From positions 27,512 to 91,511 of the forward strand of contig JBMFIC010000004.1 of NCBI GenBank assembly GCA_049976505.1: a DNA stretch of 64,000 nucleotides, written 5' to 3'. Numbering within the stretch: position 1 is the first letter of the stretch; each line of letters starts with the position of its first letter. The notes beneath the pieces are model-generated. The model was not told where the DNA came from. It did no database searches and saw nothing but the letters and a program-made list of their open reading frames with translations. The stretch comes from Nitrososphaeria archaeon. Lineage in GTDB: Archaea > Thermoproteota > Nitrososphaeria > Conexivisphaerales > UBA164. Position numbers and translations under genes: made by a program. Positions 2,740-17,940 of the stretch are shown here, piece after piece.

Positions 2740-4032
2740 ATGGAGCGCCTCGGGGTTGAGGAGGTGCCCCCTGAGAGGAGACACGGAAAGCCCGTATTTC
2801 AGCTCACCCTCTGGCTCTCGAGCAACCTGACAGTTGCGGACTTCGCGCTGGGCGCCGTTCTCCTCACCCTTGGCCTCTCGTGGGCCTGGATCGCAGCTGC
2901 CCTCACGATAGGGAACGTACTCGGGGCTCTTCTCGTCGGGGTGCTTGCTTCGTATGGGCCCGAGTTCGGGCTCCCCCAGATGATGATATCACGGAGGTTC
3001 TTTGGACCGAGGGGGAACCTGCCGTTCTCTGCTGCCCAGTGGATAAGCACCCTGGGCTGGTTTTCAGTCAACGCAATAATATCCGGGTACGTGCTGGAGT
3101 ACGCCTTCGGGGCCCTTCCCCTCTGGGCCTACATCGCAATCTCGGCGCTCCTGCAGACTGCTATAGCCGTTTACGGCTACGACGCCATACACAGGGCCGA
3201 GTACATCCTGTCCTATGTTCTAGGCGCGTACTTCGTGGCAGCGCTTCTGCTGGCCCTCAGCTCAGGAACGAGGGCGCTTCCTTCATCGGGATCGTTCAGC
3301 CCCTTCGCCTTCGCCGTGGCCCTGGCAACGACGTTCAGCTACATAATGTCCTGGGCTCCATACGCCAGCGACTACAGCAGGTACCTGCCTAAGGACACAA
3401 GCAGGGCCAGGATTGTGCTTTACGTGACGCTCGGGGGAGCCCTGGCCTCCGCCTTCATGGAGGTGGTCGGCATGGTCATGGGGGCAGCAACTGGAAACTA
3501 CTCAGGGCTCCCGGTGGTCCTTGGACAGTTCATGTCAAGGTACGGGGAAGGCGCGGTGGTGCTCTCCGTGATTATGATATTCCTGGGGGCCCTTACGGCT
3601 AACGTCCTTAACATATACTCCAACTCGCTTTCCCTGCTCTCCATGTTCGGCAGGATGAGAAGATGGACGGGGCTGCTGATAGGGGCGACAATAGGACTCA
3701 TCCTCTCGGTCGCGGGAGGGCTGAACTTCATAGGATACTACGAGGGCTTCCTCTACTTCCTGGACTACTGGATATCACCCTGGATAGGCGTGATGATTGG
3801 AGCTCACGCGTCCGGGCTGAAGGACGACAGCATTGGATCCAGGCTGCTCATCGCGTACCTGGCTGCCCTCCTGGTGTCCGTTCCATTCATGAACCTTGGC
3901 GCAGCCACTTCTGGCATGATAGGGTACGTTGGGCCTGTTTCCAGGATGATGGGAGGGGCTGACGTGAGCTTCTTCATCTCCCTCGCGGCAGGCCTCCTGC
4001 TGTCCCTGATTCTCTCGCGGAGAAGGGCCTGA
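2740..4032 (+). CDS. Purine-cytosine permease (NCS1 family)
   Basis: About 12 TM segments; WLSSN, GLPQMMISRRFFG, SWAPYASDYSRY and NVLNIYS motifs. Confidence 0.85.
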   Translation: MERLGVEEVPPERRHGKPVFQLTLWLSSNLTVADFALGAVLLTLGLSWAWIAAALTIGNVLGALLVGVLASYGPEFGLPQMMISRRFFGPRGNLPFSAAQWISTLGWFSVNAIISGYVLEYAFGALPLWAYIAISALLQTAIAVYGYDAIHRAEYILSYVLGAYFVAALLLALSSGTRALPSSGSFSPFAFAVALATTFSYIMSWAPYASDYSRYLPKDTSRARIVLYVTLGGALASAFMEVVGMVMGAATGNYSGLPVVLGQFMSRYGEGAVVLSVIMIFLGALTANVLNIYSNSLSLLSMFGRMRRWTGLLIGATIGLILSVAGGLNFIGYYEGFLYFLDYWISPWIGVMIGAHASGLKDDSIGSRLLIAYLAALLVSVPFMNLGAATSGMIGYVGPVSRMMGGADVSFFISLAAGLLLSLILSRRRA

Positions 4033-4078
4033 CGCCCTGCAAACGCTTAAATCCCTTCCACGATAAGAACAGGGCTGG

Positions 4079-5242
4079 ATGCTTTATCGGAGGCTCTACG
4101 CTCTGCTCGCGGTAAAGGCGCTCAGGACCTTCGTGTTCAGCTACATAAGTTTGGTAATTCCGTACTACCTGCACTACCTAGGATATGGGCCCATCTACGT
4201 TGGTCTCGTCCTCCTGATCATAATGGCGGGGAACGCTGCCTCGAACGTGGCTTTACTGAAGATAAGCTCTCTGCTGGGGGAGAGGACAATACTGGTCATG
4301 TACAGCGCCCTAATAGTGATCTCTGGGATCATGCTGGATGCGTTCAGGAGCCTCCCAATGATAGCTCTGGCCGGGTTCATTGGCAACATAAGCTCTGGGA
4401 CGGAGACCGGGCCCTTTCAGTCCATAGAGTCATCGGCGCTGACCAGGTTCGCGGACCAGAGCTCCAGGAACAGGGCCTACGGCGTTTACAACTTCGTGGG
4501 GTTCATGTTCACGGCTCTGGGTGCCCTCTTCACGTCCTTCGCTGGGCTTCTGATTAAAGGCTTCACTTTCTTCTCCTTCTCATTCGCCCTCTATGCTTTC
4601 CTCGGCGTGTTCCTTATGGCCATGTACTTCGCTCTTGGATGGCCAGAAGTCAGGAAGCCGGCCCTCGGGTCAGCCAGCGGGGAGTCAAGGAGGCACATAT
4701 TCAGGCTCTCGGCGCTCTTCTTCGTGGACAGCTTTGGCGGGGGTTTCATGACCCAGTCCGTTCTATCCTACTGGTTCCTGATAAGGTTCAGGCTGAACAT
4801 AGAGAGCCTGGGGGAGATATTCACTGCAACGAACGTGATCTCCTCGGTATCGATCTACGTTTCATCCTACTTATCGGACAGGATAGGGAACGTGAGGACC
4901 ATGGTCTTCACGCACTTCGCATCGAGCGTTTTCCTGATCCTCTTCGCGCTCTCTCCAACCCTTGGCCTCGCCCTTTCGTTCCTCTTCGCCAGGCAGACCC
5001 TTTCACAGATGGACGTCCCCGCAAGGCAGTCGTTCATCGCGTACATGTTCGGCGAGGACGTGAGGATCTACGCGGTTGCGATAACCAACATATTCAGGAG
5101 CCTTGGGGTTGTTCCGGGGCCTTACATAACCGGGGTGTTCCTGTACCTCGGGTACGCCTCGGCTCCAATACTGACGTCAGCGCTCTCCAAGATGGGGTAC
5201 GACCTCACGCTGTACTACCTGTACAGGGGGTACGAAAGGTAG
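4079..5242 (+). CDS. MFS transporter
   Basis: About 12 TM segments; LSDRIG motif A-like segment, ETGPFQSIE and QMDVPARQS. Confidence 0.85.
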   Translation: MLYRRLYALLAVKALRTFVFSYISLVIPYYLHYLGYGPIYVGLVLLIIMAGNAASNVALLKISSLLGERTILVMYSALIVISGIMLDAFRSLPMIALAGFIGNISSGTETGPFQSIESSALTRFADQSSRNRAYGVYNFVGFMFTALGALFTSFAGLLIKGFTFFSFSFALYAFLGVFLMAMYFALGWPEVRKPALGSASGESRRHIFRLSALFFVDSFGGGFMTQSVLSYWFLIRFRLNIESLGEIFTATNVISSVSIYVSSYLSDRIGNVRTMVFTHFASSVFLILFALSPTLGLALSFLFARQTLSQMDVPARQSFIAYMFGEDVRIYAVAITNIFRSLGVVPGPYITGVFLYLGYASAPILTSALSKMGYDLTLYYLYRGYER

Positions 5243-5962: not shown

Positions 5963-6385
5963 GGCTCCTATTTACGTCTTTGTGCTATTTATATCCTTAC
6001 GGTTAAAACGCAACATGCTCTGTGACCTTTTATGGCGATGTCTTTTTTGCTCTATTACATGGATTAACAAGTTAAGCGTGCAGCTAATCACGCCCCTGTG
6101 GATCATTATTACAGAATCAACGTTCAAAAAGTCACCAAACTGCCTGAGCAGAGCTCGCTGCCCGCTAATAAAATAAATGACGTTCGAAAAAGGTGTGAGA
6201 CGAAATGTGCTGTATCTTCTTATTTTTCAAAGGATGCTCTTTTATTATCAGGGTTACATTTTTTACCAAAAAAGTAAACCTTCTATTTTACTGCGGCCTG
6301 ACAATTTATATTCATAAGTCACATTGCTGTTAATTTTTGAAAAAAATCTAAAGTTTAATAGTTACTTAATATAAATTAACACATA

Positions 6386-7078
6386 ATGAACATATATGAA
6401 ATCAAATTAAAGCTTCATCATGATACCTGCTGGAGCGTTCTATCTGAAAGCTATCAGGGTCTTAACGTTAGAATTGATAACGTTCTCTATTATCCTTTCG
6501 AGGACAAGCTTAAGGCAACTGCAACATTTTATGCTAATAGCGAGAAGGCGTTGAAGGAATTCATTAACGATTTTGAAAAGAGCTACCCAAGCAAGAGAAG
6601 GGTGAAATACATAATAAAGCTTAACAAACGCAACGTCCCTTTTTATACGCCTTACTACGTGTATTTTGAATCCGAATACGATCTGAGCATCTCTAGCGTT
6701 ATATATGAAGCTGAAATACCTTACTGGAGGGAAATAATAACCGGTGGCAACGAGAGATGGAAAATACTGCTTTTCAGCAGACAGCAGCTAAATTACATCC
6801 TTGAAAGATTAAAGCAGATAGCCACTATAAAGGACCTTTCAGTAAACGTGATAGAGCCGCCCAAACTTACCTCCGCGTCAAGCCCGCTGGAGACCCTTCC
6901 GCACAAAGAAAGGGAGATCATACTAAAAGCCTATGAAATGGGCTACTATGATTGGCCAAGAAGGATAAGCCTAGATGAGCTTTCAAAAATATTCAACATA
7001 AGCAAGGCTGCGTTGCTGAAGAACTTAAGAAAGGGTGAGGAGAAATTACTCAAAAAAATACTGGCCGATGATAATTAG
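6386..7078 (+). CDS. Bacterio-opsin-activator (Bat/HTH_10) family regulator
   Basis: The C-terminal EREIILKAYEMGYYDWPRRISLDELSKIFNISKAALLKNLRKGE is the HTH_10 signature. Confidence 0.85.
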   Translation: MNIYEIKLKLHHDTCWSVLSESYQGLNVRIDNVLYYPFEDKLKATATFYANSEKALKEFINDFEKSYPSKRRVKYIIKLNKRNVPFYTPYYVYFESEYDLSISSVIYEAEIPYWREIITGGNERWKILLFSRQQLNYILERLKQIATIKDLSVNVIEPPKLTSASSPLETLPHKEREIILKAYEMGYYDWPRRISLDELSKIFNISKAALLKNLRKGEEKLLKKILADDN

Positions 7079-7079
7079 A

Positions 7080-8102
7080 TCATTTCGCGAGGAGCGACGC
7101 CAAAGCCACCATTATGATTCCTACTATGAAGAGCACGAACATCAGGCCTATCAGATACCATGCGGTCCTGGGTGCGCCCTTTAACTCCTTCCACACAAAG
7201 ACTCCCCAAATTGCGGAGATCATGGTGGCGTTTTGGCCAAGTATGTAAGAAATTGTGACACCAGCTACTGGGGATGAAATGAAGTTCATAACAGTAGCGG
7301 TGCTCCATACAAAGCCACCTAACAGAGCCCACATATGCCAAGAAGCCTTTCCCTTAATCCAGTTTGATAGGCTTGTTGGCTCCTGACCAGGCGTCAGCGG
7401 TTTTTTCATAAAGATGGGTATAAAGACGAAGCTGCTAACCATCGCACCAAGGGTGAGGAACGTAGCTGCCGAGTAGCTGTCTATTGCATGTGCCCCAGTT
7501 ATAGAAAGAGCGAAGAGCGGGTCAAACACCCCTATGAGTATACCTAATATTATGCTCAGTATCAGCCCACGCCTTATGTACTGAGCCTGTCTTACTTCTC
7601 CGCTTGCCTTTCCTTTAATGTTGTAAGCCAGTGCATCCACAATAATTGCGAGCATTATCAGAGCTAAACCGCCAAATTCCAGCCATGCAACACCGTATGG
7701 CCTTACAATATATGAAAGCACAGCGCCTATTACCAGAGAGAGCCCTATTCCAACCGGAAATGCCAGGCTGAATCCTGCCATGGCTATTGCAGCAACAAGC
7801 AGTATGTTGCCAGCATTCCAAACTATGCCGGCCAGTAACGCCCAAAATATATGAATAGGGGTTGCTTCGGACAGAGCTTGAAATGAAGTCAAGCCAGTCA
7901 GGGAGTTAGGAATAAGACCCAGCGTCACCTGATAAAGGAGAGCAAAGATGAACAGGCCTATAGCATAGGTAAGGTAGTAGGACTCGAACCTCCAGCCATC
8001 AGTTCCTTTCATGGTGTTTGCCCAGGATCCCCACCCTATCATGTTTATGACTAACAGCGCCAGCGCTACAGGAACCGTTGGAGGGATCCAGCCACCCATC
8101 AA
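7080..8102 (-). CDS. DMT-superfamily permease (ureide permease/GRP sugar transporter-like)
   Basis: About 10 TM segments with an internal duplication; GWGSWANT...WRFESYY, AGIVWNAGN and SYILGQNATMISAIWGVFVWKE. Confidence 0.7.
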   Translation of the reverse strand: MMGGWIPPTVPVALALLVINMIGWGSWANTMKGTDGWRFESYYLTYAIGLFIFALLYQVTLGLIPNSLTGLTSFQALSEATPIHIFWALLAGIVWNAGNILLVAAIAMAGFSLAFPVGIGLSLVIGAVLSYIVRPYGVAWLEFGGLALIMLAIIVDALAYNIKGKASGEVRQAQYIRRGLILSIILGILIGVFDPLFALSITGAHAIDSYSAATFLTLGAMVSSFVFIPIFMKKPLTPGQEPTSLSNWIKGKASWHMWALLGGFVWSTATVMNFISSPVAGVTISYILGQNATMISAIWGVFVWKELKGAPRTAWYLIGLMFVLFIVGIIMVALASLLAK

Positions 8103-8109
8103 CGCAATT

Positions 8110-9117
8110 TCACCTCTTAAGCTCCTTCAGCGCAGGTATCACCTTCTGTCCCCATACCTTAATGAACTTCTCCTCATCTGGACTTGAGCTGAGATACTGA
8201 ACGTGCGTAAATCCTGCGTCAAGATATTCCTTGGTCTTCTTAATAGCCTGTTCAGGATCTGTGACTATCATCCAGGCCTGAGCTATGTACTCTTTGGAGA
8301 TCATTCTGCCGACGCTTTCGATCACCCTAGGATCGTAGACACCATAGTTGAAGAAGAACGGGACGAGCGCCCCAGCCCAGAATCTTGCGCCCTCTACAGC
8401 TCTGTCAAAGTCCTCATCGTATGATACTATTATCTCTATAATCTTTTCGAGCTTTGAGGGATCCCTTCCTGCGTCCCTTGCACCCTTTTCAAATGCAGGG
8501 AAGAGCGTGTTCCTGTAGTAGTCGAACGGCGCCGGAAGAGTTAGAAGACCGTCGGCATACTTCCCCGCTATGTACGCTGTCTTGGGGCCGTTTGCGGCAA
8601 TGTAGATCGGAATCCTGCTTTTAGGCTTGGTGTAGAGGTTAGCCGTGCTAAGGCTGAAGTACTTTCCTTTGTACGTTACGAAGTCCTTTTCCCAGAGCAG
8701 CTTGATAATTTTTACGGCCTCCTCAAGCCTTTCACGCCTCACGTTAATTGGAGGCCAGGGGAATCCTAGAGGTGACTCGTTCATGGCCTCGCCCGTAGCG
8801 AGCGTCAGAAATACCCTTCCTGGAAACATGTCATCGAGCGTTGCCCAGGCTTGCGCAATAAGGCCTGGATGATACCTGTAACCAGGAGGTGTGACACCGG
8901 TGCCTATCTTTATCCTCTTGGTTGAAGCGAGCGCCGCGCCGATCCAGACCCATGCCTGCCCTCCGTGCGCGTTCGTATGGGCCCATGGGTGGAAGTGATC
9001 GCTGGACCATACGTCATCAAATCCATATTGTTCTGCGAGCTTTACATGCTCAAGCAGCGTTGATGGACCGTATTGCTCATGCGCTGCAAAGTAGCCTACT
9101 GAAAGAGTTTCGCTCAT
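8110..9117 (-). CDS. LLM-class F420-dependent oxidoreductase (F420-G6PDH-like)
   Basis: HEQY, WSSDHFHPW, IGTGVTPP, GRVFLTLATGEAMNE and IPIYIAANGP motifs. Confidence 0.85.
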   Translation of the reverse strand: MSETLSVGYFAAHEQYGPSTLLEHVKLAEQYGFDDVWSSDHFHPWAHTNAHGGQAWVWIGAALASTKRIKIGTGVTPPGYRYHPGLIAQAWATLDDMFPGRVFLTLATGEAMNESPLGFPWPPINVRRERLEEAVKIIKLLWEKDFVTYKGKYFSLSTANLYTKPKSRIPIYIAANGPKTAYIAGKYADGLLTLPAPFDYYRNTLFPAFEKGARDAGRDPSKLEKIIEIIVSYDEDFDRAVEGARFWAGALVPFFFNYGVYDPRVIESVGRMISKEYIAQAWMIVTDPEQAIKKTKEYLDAGFTHVQYLSSSPDEEKFIKVWGQKVIPALKELKR

Positions 9118-9157
9118 TTCAAGAAAACTGAAGGACGAGAAAAGCTATTTGCTTTTG

Positions 9158-9173
9158 GGTTAACATGTTAACC
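9158..9173. promoter_or_regulatory. Palindromic operator GGTTAACATGTTAACC, copy 1
   Basis: Perfect 16-bp palindrome in the divergent intergenic region; identical copy at 12118-12133. Confidence 0.7.
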
Positions 9174-9208
9174 ACATGATCTAATAGCTTCAACGTTAGA
9201 TCTTCGTT

Positions 9209-10321
9209 ATGGAGATGACGGCTCAGAAGTATTTTGATGAAAGCATACAGGCATCAAAGGAGGCATACAACTCGCTGATAAAGCTGCTGAAAGAAAGGGG
9301 AATTGACACCCTTGTCCTTTTCAGGGAGGAAAATATCAGGTACGTAAGCGGCCTGCAGCTCATAATTTCCATAAGGGCAACAAGCGATTCGTATGCTGCC
9401 ATAGTTGATGATAGCGGGGTAAAAGTGCTAACGGGCGAGGATGAGTACAGGAGGCTCAGGGATTACGGATCGTGGGCAGAAGTTGAAAGGTACGGTTCTG
9501 AGGGACTTCTAGGAAAGATAAAGCAGGTCCTTGGAAACAAAAAGGAGATTGGGTTCGAGGATGCAACCATTCTTAACTATCTGTACCAGGCGTTAAGCCT
9601 GAGCTACAACATGAAGCCTGCCTCAGATATAATTCTGCAGGCCAGAGGAAAAAAGAACCGCTATGAGAAGGATCTCATTATAAGGGCGGCTGAAATCCTG
9701 ACTCATGCTGTTTCTGAAGTTCCGAGGCTTTATAGGAAAGGTATGACGGAGGGCGGCCTTCTGGGAGAGCTCGAAAAGCTAATGCGTGAAGAGGGAGCGG
9801 AGGGCTTTGGAACATGGGGACTCCTTACATCCTCTGACGGACTAAAATACGTTCACTACTTTCCAAAGAACAGAGAGGTGAAGGGCATGCTGAACGTGAA
9901 CATCTCAGTCAACTTCTACGGATATTATGCTGATATAGCGAGGGTGTTCACAACTGAGAAGCTGGACAGAGAAAAAAAGGAAAAATATGATGCATTCATT
10001 GAAATAAACAGAAAGCTCATAGACGTGCTGAGGCCCGGTAAGAACATACCATCAATTGCGAACGACGTAGCAGAAGAGTACAGAACCAGGCTCAACGCTC
10101 AGCTAACGCACGCGCTCGGCAGGGGAGTTGGGCTGGAGCTAGTGGAGCCGCCGTTCATAGTACCTGGCTACAGCCAAGCCATCCAGGCAGATCAGGCCAT
10201 CTCAACCAACCCCTGGGTCAGCCTTGGAGACTATAGCTATAAGCTTGTGGACACGGTTCTGGTTGAAGAGGACGGGCCTCACCTGTACACCATCGCGAGC
10301 TACGATCTTATAGAGCTGTAA
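9209..10321 (+). CDS. M24 (creatinase/aminopeptidase P) fold protein lacking most metal ligands
   Basis: Creatinase-type N-terminus (ENIRYVSG) and a pita-bread domain (GYYADIAR, GVGLELVEPP), with the canonical D/H/E/E ligands replaced. Confidence 0.75.
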   Translation: MEMTAQKYFDESIQASKEAYNSLIKLLKERGIDTLVLFREENIRYVSGLQLIISIRATSDSYAAIVDDSGVKVLTGEDEYRRLRDYGSWAEVERYGSEGLLGKIKQVLGNKKEIGFEDATILNYLYQALSLSYNMKPASDIILQARGKKNRYEKDLIIRAAEILTHAVSEVPRLYRKGMTEGGLLGELEKLMREEGAEGFGTWGLLTSSDGLKYVHYFPKNREVKGMLNVNISVNFYGYYADIARVFTTEKLDREKKEKYDAFIEINRKLIDVLRPGKNIPSIANDVAEEYRTRLNAQLTHALGRGVGLELVEPPFIVPGYSQAIQADQAISTNPWVSLGDYSYKLVDTVLVEEDGPHLYTIASYDLIEL

Positions 10322-10375
10322 ACAATTAATTATTGAAGAAGATAATTTTAAATATTTAATTTTGTTTTTGAAGCT

Positions 10376-11071
10376 CTACAAAATCGCGATGGCCCTTACT
10401 GGCGCCCCATCTGAGTCCTTTATTTTGAGGGGCAGAATTATGAAATATGCCCTTTTCTCCTTCCCGCCTTCAAGCACCTGATCCAGGTTGGCAACTTCCT
10501 CGAGAATCAATATGCTTTTACCCAGAAGTATTTTGTGAACCTCCTTGGCCGAACTTGCTATTGGCCCCGCAACTGCAGTTCTGCCACCCCATGCACCTAT
10601 GCTCAGGCCATCTATACCTACGAGCTTTATGCCTATATCAGCTAGATAATTTGCGCCCGAGACCCCAAGGTAGGGCCACCTATAAAGGTATCTAACGTTG
10701 AATCCTCTGTAGTTGCTCCAGCCCGTGTAAAGCATTACGATGTCGTCACGCCTGATTGAAAAAACGCTAAGGTCGTCTCTTTCTATCGCTTCCCCATCTT
10801 TCTTATGACTTAGATTAATCACGATCCCGTTTCCCATTAGTTTATCAAGCTCTATGTTGTCAAGGGTCCTGCCGTTCTCTAGCATGTGTGCCGGCGCATC
10901 GAGATGAGTGCCATGATGGGTGTTGATTATCAGCTGCTTCACGTTGTACCCATCTATGTTTATCTGCTTGAGCTGAGAAACTGAGAGGATCGGATGTGTT
11001 GGCCAGCCTGGCATGTCATGATACATTACATGAGTGAGATCCACTACTTTGTTTCCCTTTATTTCTATCAT
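10376..11071 (-). CDS. Cyclase family metal hydrolase (kynurenine formamidase-like)
   Basis: HHGTHLDAPAH motif, VGIDGLS and LPLKIKDSDGAPVRAIA. Confidence 0.9.
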   Translation of the reverse strand: MIEIKGNKVVDLTHVMYHDMPGWPTHPILSVSQLKQINIDGYNVKQLIINTHHGTHLDAPAHMLENGRTLDNIELDKLMGNGIVINLSHKKDGEAIERDDLSVFSIRRDDIVMLYTGWSNYRGFNVRYLYRWPYLGVSGANYLADIGIKLVGIDGLSIGAWGGRTAVAGPIASSAKEVHKILLGKSILILEEVANLDQVLEGGKEKRAYFIILPLKIKDSDGAPVRAIAIL

Positions 11072-12078
11072 TTTATCCTCCCCAGAATCCTGTACAGCTT
11101 CTCCTCCTCCTTTTCCATAGGATGTTCAAGGGCCAGCTCGTAGAGCTTGTTGAAGTGTATGTAGCCTACCTGCTTTTCCAGCGTCCACTCCTTAGCAAAG
11201 GATCCGTTAAGGATGTCCAGCGCCTCCTTCCTTATGAGCTCCTTTATGCGCTCGTCCGCAAACTGTGGTCCCCTTGTAAGCTGTCCGTACTGGCTAGTCC
11301 TGGAGTGGTTTCTGAGCTGCTTGAAGAGGCCTTGCTCCTTCATTGATCTTGCTATTTCCTCAAGCTCTCCTGATGCGTAGAGCTCGAGAATGACAGCCTC
11401 TGGCGAGGCTCCTAGCTCTGTTGCCACTTCGTAGTAGGCCCTGAACATGAATAATACAGCGCCTGCCCATGTGTGCTCAGTTAGCAGGTCCACCAGCGTT
11501 TCCTCCCTGAAGCTTGACCGGATAGCAACCCCGTTCGGCTTGAAGACGCCTATCGCATCAGTTAGGGCAAGCAGCTGGTCCTCAGCATCGTGCGCGTAGT
11601 CCATGCCTACAGCTATAAGAACTGGGAACCCCTAGCCCTTCAGATAAAGGTCTCTTATGCCAAAACCTATCATTCTTGGCGCTATCATCAGCACGTTTGC
11701 CTTTTCAGGCACCTTTACGAGCCCGTAGAAGTAATTATAGCCTGACGCAAAGACCACTGTGCCGCCCTCCTTGAAATTCCTGTTGATTTCGTTTTCAAAA
11801 ACTTCAGGCTGTATTTCGTCCGGTATCAGAATGAAAAGAATATCAGCCTTTGCGGCGGCCTCACCGATTGAGTACACCTTGAAGCCGTCTTTCTCTGCCT
11901 GCTCCGCGTACTGATCCCTTACGTTGCCCACAATGACGTTCAGTCCACTATCACGCATGTTAAGCGCCTGGGAACGTCCCTGATTTCCGTATCCTATGAC
12001 CGCAATGGTTTTGTCCTTGATGGATCTCCAGACCTTATTCCTCTGCTCTTCCGTTAAACTTGTGATCAGCCTCTCCAT
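11068..12078 (-). pseudogene. ilvC: Ketol-acid reductoisomerase-like gene interrupted by an in-frame TAG at 11632-11634
   Basis: IGYGNQGRSQALNMRDSG, LIPDE and FASGY in the N-terminal half. LYLKG-TAG-GFPVLIAVGMDY reads in frame into the C-terminal half (ETLVDLLTEH, SRTSQYG). Confidence 0.8.
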
Positions 12079-12117
12079 TGCAAATAAACTGTGTCCTATC
12101 CTGAATTAAAGAAAATT

Positions 12118-12133
12118 GGTTAACATGTTAACC
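12118..12133. promoter_or_regulatory. Palindromic operator GGTTAACATGTTAACC, copy 2
   Basis: 40 bp upstream of the ilvC-like ATG; matches copy 1 over about 22 bp in inverted orientation. Confidence 0.7.
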
Positions 12134-12151: not shown

Positions 12152-12356
12152 TTACGATCTTCCCATCATGCTCCTTCCTATCTCTATCCTGTCGTAGGGC
12201 GGAACGAACGTGCCGTTTATCCTCCCCTTGTAGATCACGTGTATAACATCGCTCAGCTCGAAGAGCTCATCGAGGTGATCGAAGATGAGCAGTACGCCTT
12301 CTCTTGAGCTCCTGAACTCCATCAGCGTTCTTCTCACGAAATCGGTTGAGGCTACA
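12152..12356 (-). pseudogene. C-terminal remnant of a sugar/nucleoside ABC transporter ATPase
   Basis: VASTDFVRRTLMEF...GVLLIFDHLDELFELSDVIHVIYKGRI...IGRSMMG matches the tail of simple-sugar ABC ATPases. The 5' part is missing exactly at the IS end. Confidence 0.75.
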
Positions 12357-12390
12357 TGACCTCCTCCCCGCCATGAAGGGCGAGGCTTTC
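12357..12390 (-). mobile_element. Solo IS200/IS605-type terminal hairpin
   Basis: The minus strand reads GAAAGCCTCGCCCTTCATGGCGGGGAGGAGGTCA, which resembles archaeal IS200/IS605 ends. Related copies at 30922 and 43368. Confidence 0.65.
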
Positions 12391-16833: not shown

Positions 16834-17940
16834 CTAATATAAAGTGTAGATCTTCGGCTCGAGCTTAGATATTTTTTCCTTTCCTGAGCCCTTGACCAAG
16901 TACGTCTCCTCATCGCCTATCATTATGCCATCATCCGTAGGGGCATACAGCTCTATGTTTATCACCATATTCTCCTCGAACTTCAGGTCTGAAGTAGGGG
17001 AAATGTGCGCCTCCTCCGTTACTAGGCCTATGCTGTGACCGGCTGATGCAAAAAGGGGCTCAAGCCCGTTCTCGACATAGTAGCTTGCAGCTCTCTCATA
17101 TATTTCCGAGAAGGAAGCTCCTGGCCTGATGTCGTCGGCCAGCCTGTTGATGATCCCCAGCAACTTCTCGTAGAGCGAGCTGTACTTCTCGGGAACCTCC
17201 TTTCCCGAGTAAAAATATTTCCTTAGATCTGATACGTACCCCCTGTACACGCTTCCTATGTCAAGGGTCACGAGCTGCTCGGGCTGAAGGCGCTCGTCGA
17301 GCAATATTTCAGGGTTCGAAGCCCCAAAAGCGACAGTAATGTGATCAATAGAGTCGCCTCCGTTAGATAGTATCCTGAGCTTTGCCTCCCTTATCAGCTC
17401 CTCCCTGCTCATACCTATTCTCGCGTAGCTGATGAGCTCGGAGATCACTTTCTCGGAGATCTCAGCGCTCCTCCTCAGAAGTTCGATCTCCATTTCGTTC
17501 TTTACGAGCCTCAGTCTGAGCATCAGCTTGTCCCCATCCTCTATTTGCAATCCCTGAGCCTGCATGATGCCAAGCACATAGCTGGGAACTCCATAGTCAA
17601 CGGCTACCTTTCCACTGATCCTTCTAAAGAAGGAGGTTATCTCGTCCTTCGCACCTGCCAGATCGGCATATGTTACGAGCTCTGATGAAAAATCAACGCC
17701 TAGGGTGACCCCGAACCAAGTGAACAGAGTCACCTTTCCATTATCGTCAACAAAGGCCAGATATGGAAGCTGATTCCTGAGCGCGTAAAGGATTGGGTTC
17801 TCAAAGCAGGGCAGAACTGGGAGTCCCGTCGTGTAATAGACGTTCTCTGGGGACCCAACGAGGATCCCGCTCAGGCCGGACCCTGAGATTAGCTCGGCGG
17901 CCCTTCTTGCATCAAACCCGATGGGCTCCACCCTTCTCAT
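16834..17940 (-). CDS. M24 family peptidase (Xaa-Pro peptidase-like)
   Basis: Metal ligands retained: TLDIG...GYVSD, GHSIG, NIE and DEET. Confidence 0.85.
   Translation of the reverse strand: MRRVEPIGFDARRAAELISGSGLSGILVGSPENVYYTTGLPVLPCFENPILYALRNQLPYLAFVDDNGKVTLFTWFGVTLGVDFSSELVTYADLAGAKDEITSFFRRISGKVAVDYGVPSYVLGIMQAQGLQIEDGDKLMLRLRLVKNEMEIELLRRSAEISEKVISELISYARIGMSREELIREAKLRILSNGGDSIDHITVAFGASNPEILLDERLQPEQLVTLDIGSVYRGYVSDLRKYFYSGKEVPEKYSSLYEKLLGIINRLADDIRPGASFSEIYERAASYYVENGLEPLFASAGHSIGLVTEEAHISPTSDLKFEENMVINIELYAPTDDGIMIGDEETYLVKGSGKEKISKLEPKIYTLY

Follow-up and report, generated by a model that had tools for sequence, protein, structure and literature searches.

A XylR-like regulator and an extended Ara-box palindrome as the predicted switch of a catabolic gene cluster in a Nitrososphaeria archaeon

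The stretch of DNA analysed here (the window) comprises 64,000 nucleotides of contig C4 (JBMFIC010000004.1) in the metagenome-assembled genome (MAG) of a Nitrososphaeria archaeon (GCA_049976505.1; 1.32 Mb in 63 contigs, 51% GC, 92% complete). It contains a catabolic gene cluster in which a 16-bp palindrome, GGTTAACATGTTAACC, occurs twice, at positions 9158-9173 (palindrome 1) and 12118-12133 (palindrome 2). One of its genes encodes a XylR-like regulator of 230 amino acids (aa), composed of an N-terminal double ferredoxin/ACT-like domain and a C-terminal HTH_10 domain (6386-7078, plus strand). Palindrome 1 is common to two divergent promoters, that of an F420-dependent luciferase-like (LLM) dehydrogenase of the Adf/FGD family (8110-9117, minus strand), whose operon has as its second gene a permease resembling sugar-proton symporters of the RhaT/GlcU family (DMT; 7080-8102, minus strand), and that of an M24-fold protein with a Creatinase_N domain (9215-10321, plus strand). 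Palindrome 2 lies upstream of an operon encoding a KARI-2-like reductoisomerase (11068-12078, minus strand) and a cyclase-family metal-dependent hydrolase of the kynurenine-formamidase fold (10376-11071, minus strand). We consider it probable that the palindrome is an extended Ara-box and the operator through which the adjacent HTH_10 protein, a XylR homologue, activates the cluster.

The two sites are the only exact copies in the window, and none of 100 shuffled windows contained three or more matches to the 16-mer at up to three mismatches. A scan of the whole assembly at up to two mismatches found no copy of GGTTAACATGTTAACC beyond these two, and genome scans with the core AACATGTT and with relaxed cores revealed neither an additional site at promoter spacing nor further regulon members; the one extra match to GGTTAA-N4-TTAACC (contig C1) lies within a coding frame. 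An earlier note on this DNA, which had singled out the palindrome as the mark of a catabolic regulon, had set such a scan as a check; with two copies in the genome, the palindrome proved to be neither common in non-promoter DNA nor a mobile-element repeat. The 22-bp match between the copies that the same note described holds once copy 1 is reverse-complemented (tGGTTAACATGTTAACCcaaaa), and the extra bases of this longer match are not kept on the KARI side in relatives. The dyad itself, GGTTAAY-AT-RTTAACC, is an extension of the 8-bp Ara-box core to a perfect 16-mer with GG/CC ends. A degenerate copy with three mismatches, GATTAACAAGTTAAGC, is located at 6062-6077, 309 nt upstream of the regulator ATG and 100 nt from the start of an OFeT-like gene. 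Autoregulation via this copy was rejected, as its spacing is wrong for a promoter and the copy is absent in relatives.

The arrangement of the promoters is highly regular. Counted as bases in between, palindrome 1, which sits in the 91-bp spacer of the two divergent genes, is 40 nt from the ATG of the LLM gene (9117, minus strand) and 35 nt from the first (9209) and 41 nt from the second (9215) ATG of the M24 gene, and 39 nt separate palindrome 2 from the start codon of the KARI-like gene (12078, minus strand); the spacings of 41, 36 and 40 bp given previously were right within one base of counting. The M24 open reading frame (ORF) opens at 9209, and its true start is probably the ATG at 9215, which aligns with the starts of the orthologues; with this predicted correction, the spacing across the three promoters becomes more uniform than first noted. 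Each palindrome is followed after 8 nt by a TATA-like octamer: AATAGCTT in the LLM promoter (9142-9149, minus strand), TAATAGCT in the M24 promoter (9182-9189, plus strand) and TTAATTCA in the KARI-like/cyclase promoter (12102-12109, minus strand). The same succession of palindrome, 8 nt, A/T-rich TATA-like octamer, 21-25 nt and ATG was found in all 15 promoters of five clusters (three per cluster; the four orthologous clusters are described below), the gap from palindrome to ATG being 37-41 nt throughout. The claim that identical palindromes stand at fixed spacing just upstream of the transcription factor B recognition element (BRE) and TATA box of three transcription units, beside an HTH_10 regulator, was thus borne out.

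Relative to the start codon, the palindrome spans about -56 to -41, with its centre approximately 48 bp upstream, and abuts the BRE position. Relative to the start codon, A/T content before 816 long ORFs of the genome has its main peak at -29 to -26 and a lesser one at -35/-34, a pattern typical of genomes in which leaderless transcripts with TATA and BRE abound. The three target promoters are likewise predicted to be leaderless, their start sites being placed from the sequence. A TATA profile learned from the same genome (TTTAWAWA, with the 5' end at -32 to -29) was used to rank the promoters among the upstream regions of all ORFs. The LLM promoter, whose octamer matches the profile weakly, fell in the 9th percentile, the M24 promoter in the 44th, the KARI promoter in the 70th and the regulator's own promoter in the 81st. 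That two of the three targets (LLM and M24) have weak core promoters fits activator dependence, and this is only suggestive.

Orthologues of the regulator, 63-64% identical in the search, were found in 2 of 60 related genomes, both from the same genus: Nitrososphaeria archaeon F8S.bin.2 and Thaumarchaeota archaeon EvPrim.Bin21. Both congeners possess the whole cluster with gene order unchanged (LLM 91%, permease 89%, KARI 83-88%, cyclase 81%, M24 68% and regulator 60-62% identical in the cluster comparison), and two more complete clusters are present on metagenome contigs (L023 and L024). The gene set on which a synteny check had been proposed is kept in four other clusters, over which identity amounts to 60-71% for the regulator and 68-72% for the M24 protein; when 185,579 species genomes were searched for synteny with the M24 protein as the query, the two congeners were the only hits. 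The palindrome occurs at both positions in all four orthologous clusters. The KARI-side copy is exact in all five clusters including that of the window, and the LLM/M24-side copy differs among clusters at central positions only (GGTTAAYAKGTTAACC). None of the 10 sites deviates from the half-sites GGTTAA and TTAACC, and the surrounding intergenic DNA aligns poorly. When 61 related genomes were scanned for the pattern of the AT-centred palindrome, it turned up in three, exactly those with the regulator and solely inside the cluster; palindrome and regulator are jointly absent from the other 58.

The HTH_10 domain of the regulator (PF04967, E 6e-19, residues 173-223) is its sole Pfam domain. A profile built from six orthologues matched 1174 proteins in 1.84 billion representatives, and most of these are approximately 210-240 aa long and aligned over their full length, which indicates a widespread two-domain architecture. 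In an AlphaFold model built on 70 family proteins (mean predicted local distance difference test score, pLDDT, 93.5), two beta-alpha-beta ferredoxin-like units (residues 1-156) are followed by a sigma region-4-like helix-turn-helix (residues 167-229). The fold was matched best by Ta1207 of Thermoplasma (E 1.5e-4) and by IlvH, a regulatory subunit of the ACT type, and the helix-turn-helix matched sigma-factor region 4; neither GAF nor PAS/PAC domains were found by Pfam and fold comparison. An HDxCW motif in the N-terminal domain and a conserved Glu (H12, C15, W16 and E123 in the window protein) are nearly invariant across the family of HTH_10 proteins of about 220 aa, XylR included, and may form a ligand or metal site of the sensor domain. 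The regulator had been described as Bat-like, which is correct for its HTH_10 domain and wrong for its sensor, a double ferredoxin/ACT-like fold free of GAF and PAS. Bat of Halobacterium shares the C-terminal HTH_10 domain and is also an activator acting from an upstream site; however, it is about three times longer, has GAF and PAS/PAC domains where the window regulator has two ferredoxin/ACT-like units, and its binding-site sequence is unrelated to the palindrome.

The closest known counterpart of this system is found in Sulfolobales, whose arabinose/xylose regulon is said to have been described by Brouns in 2006 and by Peng in 2009. In Sulfolobus acidocaldarius, the XylR protein (saci_2116) is needed for growth on pentoses and for transcription of xylF (van der Kolk 2020, PMC7264815). 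Mutation of single bases of the Ara-box AACATGTT abolishes the ara promoter, and the S. islandicus homologue M1627_2327, 54% identical, complements a xylR deletion (PMC7264815). Transcription of xylR itself is not regulated (PMC7264815), in agreement with the lack of signs of autoregulation in the window. Among the matches to our profile, P0011 (E 1.7e-23, full length) is an S. islandicus protein annotated as "bacterio-opsin activator HTH", encoded inside a pentose-oxidation cluster beside an MR_MLE dehydratase, an FAA_hydrolase and an aldehyde dehydrogenase. The homologue of P0011 in S. acidocaldarius is P0195, which is 54% identical and encoded three genes beyond a CUT2 ABC transporter (binding protein, permease and single ATPase). 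We identify P0195 with Saci_2116, because its position matches the published place of saci_2116 relative to saci_2120-2122, and P0011 with M1627_2327, because the identity of 54% matches the published value.

The window regulator aligns with Saci_2116 XylR over residues 1-230 versus 2-228 (BLASTP E 6e-29, 26% identity; hhalign probability 99.75% over 219 columns). The core of the palindrome, AACATGTT, is the Ara-box of the pentose-induced promoters of Sulfolobales and is present in both window sites. The xylF (saci_2122) promoter sequence GTTTAACATGTTAAAA, located 39 nt before the ATG, is identical to the window palindrome at 13 of 16 positions, and a 12-bp core, TTAACATGTTAA, is the same in both. 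In S. islandicus, the spacer between the divergent genes for FAA_hydrolase (kdaD) and aldehyde dehydrogenase contains one central box, AGTAAACATGTTAGCA, flanked on both sides by a TATA box at a distance of 8 nt, with the start codons 34 and 36 nt from the box; the Sulfolobales examples have box-to-ATG distances of 34-39 nt. The two systems thus share a regulator of approximately 230 aa with an HDxCW-containing N-terminal domain and a C-terminal HTH_10, a regulator gene adjoining sugar-uptake genes, a box that precedes TATA by 8 nt and the ATG of leaderless genes by 34-41 nt, and the use of a single box for two divergent promoters, the S. islandicus spacer and window positions 9118-9214 having the same bidirectional design. 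They differ in the host, which is a MAG genus of Nitrososphaeria rather than a member of Sulfolobales, in the regulators, which form a separate clade in the window lineage and are 26% identical to XylR, and in the box, here lengthened to a perfect 16-mer that ends in GG/CC. The targets differ as well: the XylR regulon comprises a CUT2 transporter and Weimberg enzymes, whereas those in the window are the LLM dehydrogenase, the permease, the M24-like, KARI-2-like and cyclase proteins, and a Pfam survey of the cluster found no MR_MLE dehydratase, FAA_hydrolase (KdaD) or aldehyde dehydrogenase. Very probably, then, the pair in the window is of the XylR/Ara-box kind already known in Sulfolobales, and what is new is the lineage and the target enzymes. 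The palindrome had been expected to provide a binding motif for an HTH_10 protein, which it probably does; it is not the first motif for this type of protein, being of the known Ara-box/XylR kind. Literature searches on HTH_10 binding motifs as such turned up nothing specific.

Box and regulator were also found together at more distant loci with partly different targets. At L028, where the regulator is 41% identical to that of the window and one cluster member is annotated as Marsarchaeota, the start codon of a KARI-like-cyclase operon is preceded by GGTTAATGTGTTAGCC, a gap of 8 nt, TAAATACC and a further 22 nt, in this order, and the regulator has an MFS sugar transporter gene as its neighbour. 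At L030 ("Nitrososphaerota archaeon"; regulator 34% identical), one box, GGTTAATATATTAACT, is located 39 nt before an operon of an MFS sugar transporter, a metallo-beta-lactamase-fold protein and a MOFRL glycerate kinase, and another, AGTTAATATATTAACC, directly after the regulator gene and before genes for a DUF1537-type (SBD_N) kinase and a PdxA-family dehydrogenase. At the centre, the sequence change is symmetric (C to T and G to A), as expected for a dimer on a dyad. The occurrence of the same box and spacing before other operons at L028 and L030 suggests that the box travels with the regulator and not with particular targets. A further regulator, 40% identical (L029), adjoins a CUT2-type sugar ABC transporter, and no box was found on that short contig. 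In Thermogymnomonas acidicola (Thermoplasmatales), a AACATGTT box with the 8-nt-TATA layout precedes an operon encoding an HTH_10 protein, a DUF1537-type kinase, a KARI-2-like protein, a cyclase and an MFS sugar transporter. The HTH_10 gene of this organism (L035, BBCP01000001.1, about 4005-4770) appears to be frame-shifted in the draft, the N-terminal RHIDCWS motif and the C-terminal HTH being in different frames and only 156 aa being called. The KARI-like-cyclase pair is a recurrent target of the box/regulator pairing. The KARI-2-like homologues at L034, L036 and L038 occur without a cyclase and without an Ara-box context, and the KARI-2-like family as a whole is hence not tied to the regulon.

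In the scheme that we infer, for binding and direction of control (activation) as well as for the inducer and the pathway chemistry, a regulator dimer would bind the palindrome 8 bp upstream of TATA, directly beside BRE. Palindrome 1 would serve the divergent LLM-permease and M24-like promoters and palindrome 2 the KARI-like-cyclase operon. The inducer, which the RhaT/GlcU-type permease would import and which is probably a sugar, polyol or sugar acid, would bind the N-terminal double ferredoxin/ACT-like domain, and the inducer-bound regulator would help TBP and TFB onto weak core promoters and so turn the cluster on. Archaeal activators working from BRE-upstream sites include Ptr2 of Methanocaldococcus jannaschii, and TrmB/TrmBL1 and SurR in activating mode. 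They likewise use a dimeric site directly upstream of BRE and are presumed to recruit TBP/TFB to weak core promoters, but they belong to unrelated families (Lrp/AsnC, TrmB and ArsR-like) and recognize unrelated motifs. An activator role, as proposed in the earlier note, is the best supported because of the full-length homology of the regulator to the genetically proven activator XylR and the presence of the Ara-box in the palindrome.

Several observations weigh against this interpretation. Purification of XylR failed, so that no electrophoretic mobility shift assay (EMSA) could be made and its direct binding to the Ara-box is a proposal (PMC7264815). The recognition helices of the two regulators differ (NISKAALLKNLRK versus GVTKVALDRHIRN). 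A maximum-likelihood tree built from 77 members of the family contains two well-supported clades, one uniting the window regulators with three more distant ones (support 99/99) and the other formed by XylR of Sulfolobales (100/99), which join in a polytomy; we accordingly claim homology and equivalent design, not orthology. The TATA box of the KARI promoter, at the 70th percentile, is not weak. Finally, a footprint on a 16-bp site that ends 8 bp from TATA could overlap BRE and cause repression instead. A typical footprint of 20-24 bp would indeed touch BRE, and the reasonably good TATA of the KARI promoter would also suit a repressor, which with the same operator would block TFB/TBP at all three promoters until an inducer releases it. 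We regard this as unlikely, because the XylR/Ara-box pair with the same geometry activates, deletion of xylR or mutation of the box abolishing expression rather than derepressing it (PMC7264815), and because the LLM and M24 core promoters are weak.

The biochemical status of XylR binding (PMC7264815) also leaves room for a real operator that belongs to another transcription factor, encoded elsewhere, with the HTH_10 gene as a bystander. Such an arrangement is improbable, given that the palindrome and the regulator clade co-occur in every case examined and are missing together from the 58 related genomes, and that the pairing holds when the targets change (L028 and L030) and also in Sulfolobales and Thermogymnomonas. 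There is even less reason to expect a non-regulatory origin, be it a chance repeat, a cluster of restriction sites, a repetitive extragenic palindrome (REP)-like element or the ends of a mobile element. The palindrome does include two HpaI-type GTTAAC hexamers, and GC content is lower in the cluster (42-49%) than in its surroundings, but the genome has just two copies, both at promoter spacing, they are conserved against diverged flanks in five lineages, and the cluster is devoid of transposase and integrase genes; the probability of such an origin is negligible in our view. Activation by the XylR-like regulator from an extended Ara-box is therefore the interpretation that we retain.

The products of the cluster were assigned to the Pfam families stated in the earlier note (HTH_10, Sugar_transport/Ureide_permease, Bac_luciferase, M24 with Creatinase_N, Cyclase, and KARI_N plus KARI_C). 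The LLM protein (PF00296 Bac_luciferase, E 7e-61) scored 248 bits against TIGR03557, above the curated cut-off of 210.4, and its closest solved structure is the F420-dependent alcohol dehydrogenase Adf (1rhc, E 4e-99), followed by F420 glucose-6-phosphate dehydrogenases. The genome encodes CofH (452 bits) and CofE (262 bits), both over curated cut-offs, and the organism can thus make F420; this agrees with the F420 dehydrogenase proposed earlier. The permease matched PF06800 (Sugar_transport, E 6e-12) and PF07168 (Ureide_permease, E 1e-11), its best NCBIfam match being TIGR00776 RhaT/GlcU (E 1e-13, below the cut-off). The M24 protein had been called metal-less, and indeed four of its five metal ligands are gone (D to N, H to R, and both E replaced), with one Asp kept; the alignment showed this loss to be conserved in all five orthologues. 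A paralogous M24/Creatinase_N protein (16834-17940, minus strand) has all five metal ligands intact. The cyclase-family protein (PF04199, E 2e-32), whose gene start overlaps the stop of the KARI-like gene, matched the metal-dependent hydrolase structures 8hmo and 1r61 and kynurenine formamidase.

The KARI-like protein is most similar to the structure 6jcv, "putative KARI 2" (E 2e-98). Its family had been recognized correctly, but the gene is not intact: an in-frame TAG, missed earlier, at 11632-11634 separates KARI_N (11632-12078) from KARI_C (11068-11604). All four orthologues are uninterrupted, the two congeners having CAG (Gln) at this codon and the genes of L023 and L024 being called as intact 336-aa proteins. 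Read-through or pyrrolysine insertion was rejected on account of the CAG in relatives, which together with the intact genes points to a nonsense change private to this genome or assembly, not to recoding. The most probable origins of the TAG are a recent nonsense mutation, a strain variant and, the genome being a MAG, an error of assembly, and the first gene of the operon may be non-functional in the source genome.

Upstream of palindrome 2, adjoining it and co-directional with the KARI-like gene, lies a C-terminal fragment of an ABC ATPase of approximately 50-78 aa (12152-12388, minus strand; ...GVLLIFDHLDELFELSDVIHVIYKGRI...), weakly similar to XylH in a single comparison (E 3e-4). It is not present in the L023 or L024 clusters. 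A former sugar ABC transporter had been counted as part of the pathway; this was rejected, since only the short C-terminal remnant exists and it lies outside the conserved cluster. CUT2 sugar ABC transporters are the neighbours of XylR in S. acidocaldarius and of the sister regulator at L029. The RhaT/GlcU-type permease may have taken the place of an ancestral ABC importer.

The region 6001-12000 has a GC content of 42-49%, compared to 55-60% in the left flank and a genome mean of 51%, and the cluster is present in three of nine genomes of the genus. The low GC and this patchy distribution are consistent with an accessory, possibly laterally acquired island; the Pfam and ORF survey of the cluster found no transposase or integrase gene.

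The evidence favours a role of the cluster in the uptake and oxidation of a sugar, polyol or acid sugar, and not of a ureide or other nitrogen compound. This reading follows from the type of the transporter and the Adf/FGD-type F420 dehydrogenase, from the homology of the switch to that of the pentose regulon, and from the control of sugar and acid-sugar genes by sister regulators. The ureide or nitrogen-containing sugar suggested earlier as the substrate finds no support in the scores, which are best for the transporter as RhaT/GlcU and for the LLM protein as an F420-dependent alcohol/sugar dehydrogenase. Speculatively, a hydroxyl group would be oxidized to a lactone or ketone in an F420-dependent reaction, the product would be hydrolyzed by the cyclase-fold enzyme, and the KARI-2-like enzyme, running in reverse, would oxidize and isomerize the resulting 2,3-dihydroxy acid, with some step left to the metal-less M24 protein. 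A DUF1537 kinase, sought in the source genome as a tie to known acid-sugar routes, was not found, and its absence, together with the interrupted KARI-like gene, suggests that the pathway may be decaying there.

A wider reading can be offered only tentatively, and we think it more doubtful than not. In thermoacidophilic archaea of more than one phylum (Nitrososphaeria, Marsarchaeota-like lineages and Thermoplasmatales), the XylR-family/Ara-box switch may govern acid-sugar-type catabolism, the pentose role in Sulfolobales not being exclusive. A new acid-sugar module would be its recurrent target, consisting of a KARI-2-like acid-sugar "oxidoisomerase" acting in reverse and a cyclase-fold lactonase, joined in the source genus by an F420-dependent sugar/polyol dehydrogenase and the metal-less M24 enzyme. 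If this is true, the module would be a new F420-linked sugar oxidation pathway.

The predicted pair extends the XylR/Ara-box switch from Sulfolobales to the class Nitrososphaeria, and the T. acidicola locus points to a second phylum. A full 16-bp dyad is now available instead of an 8-bp core, with independent comparative support for the binding of XylR-type proteins to the Ara-box, and the orthologues offer alternative proteins for EMSA, footprinting and structure determination. The bidirectional promoter, short and predicted to be tight and inducible, might be used as a genetic part; the ara promoter of Sulfolobus is already employed in this way. The unusual enzymes that appear to be co-regulated in this compact set are candidates for an undescribed sugar or acid-sugar route in the non-ammonia-oxidizing Nitrososphaeria.

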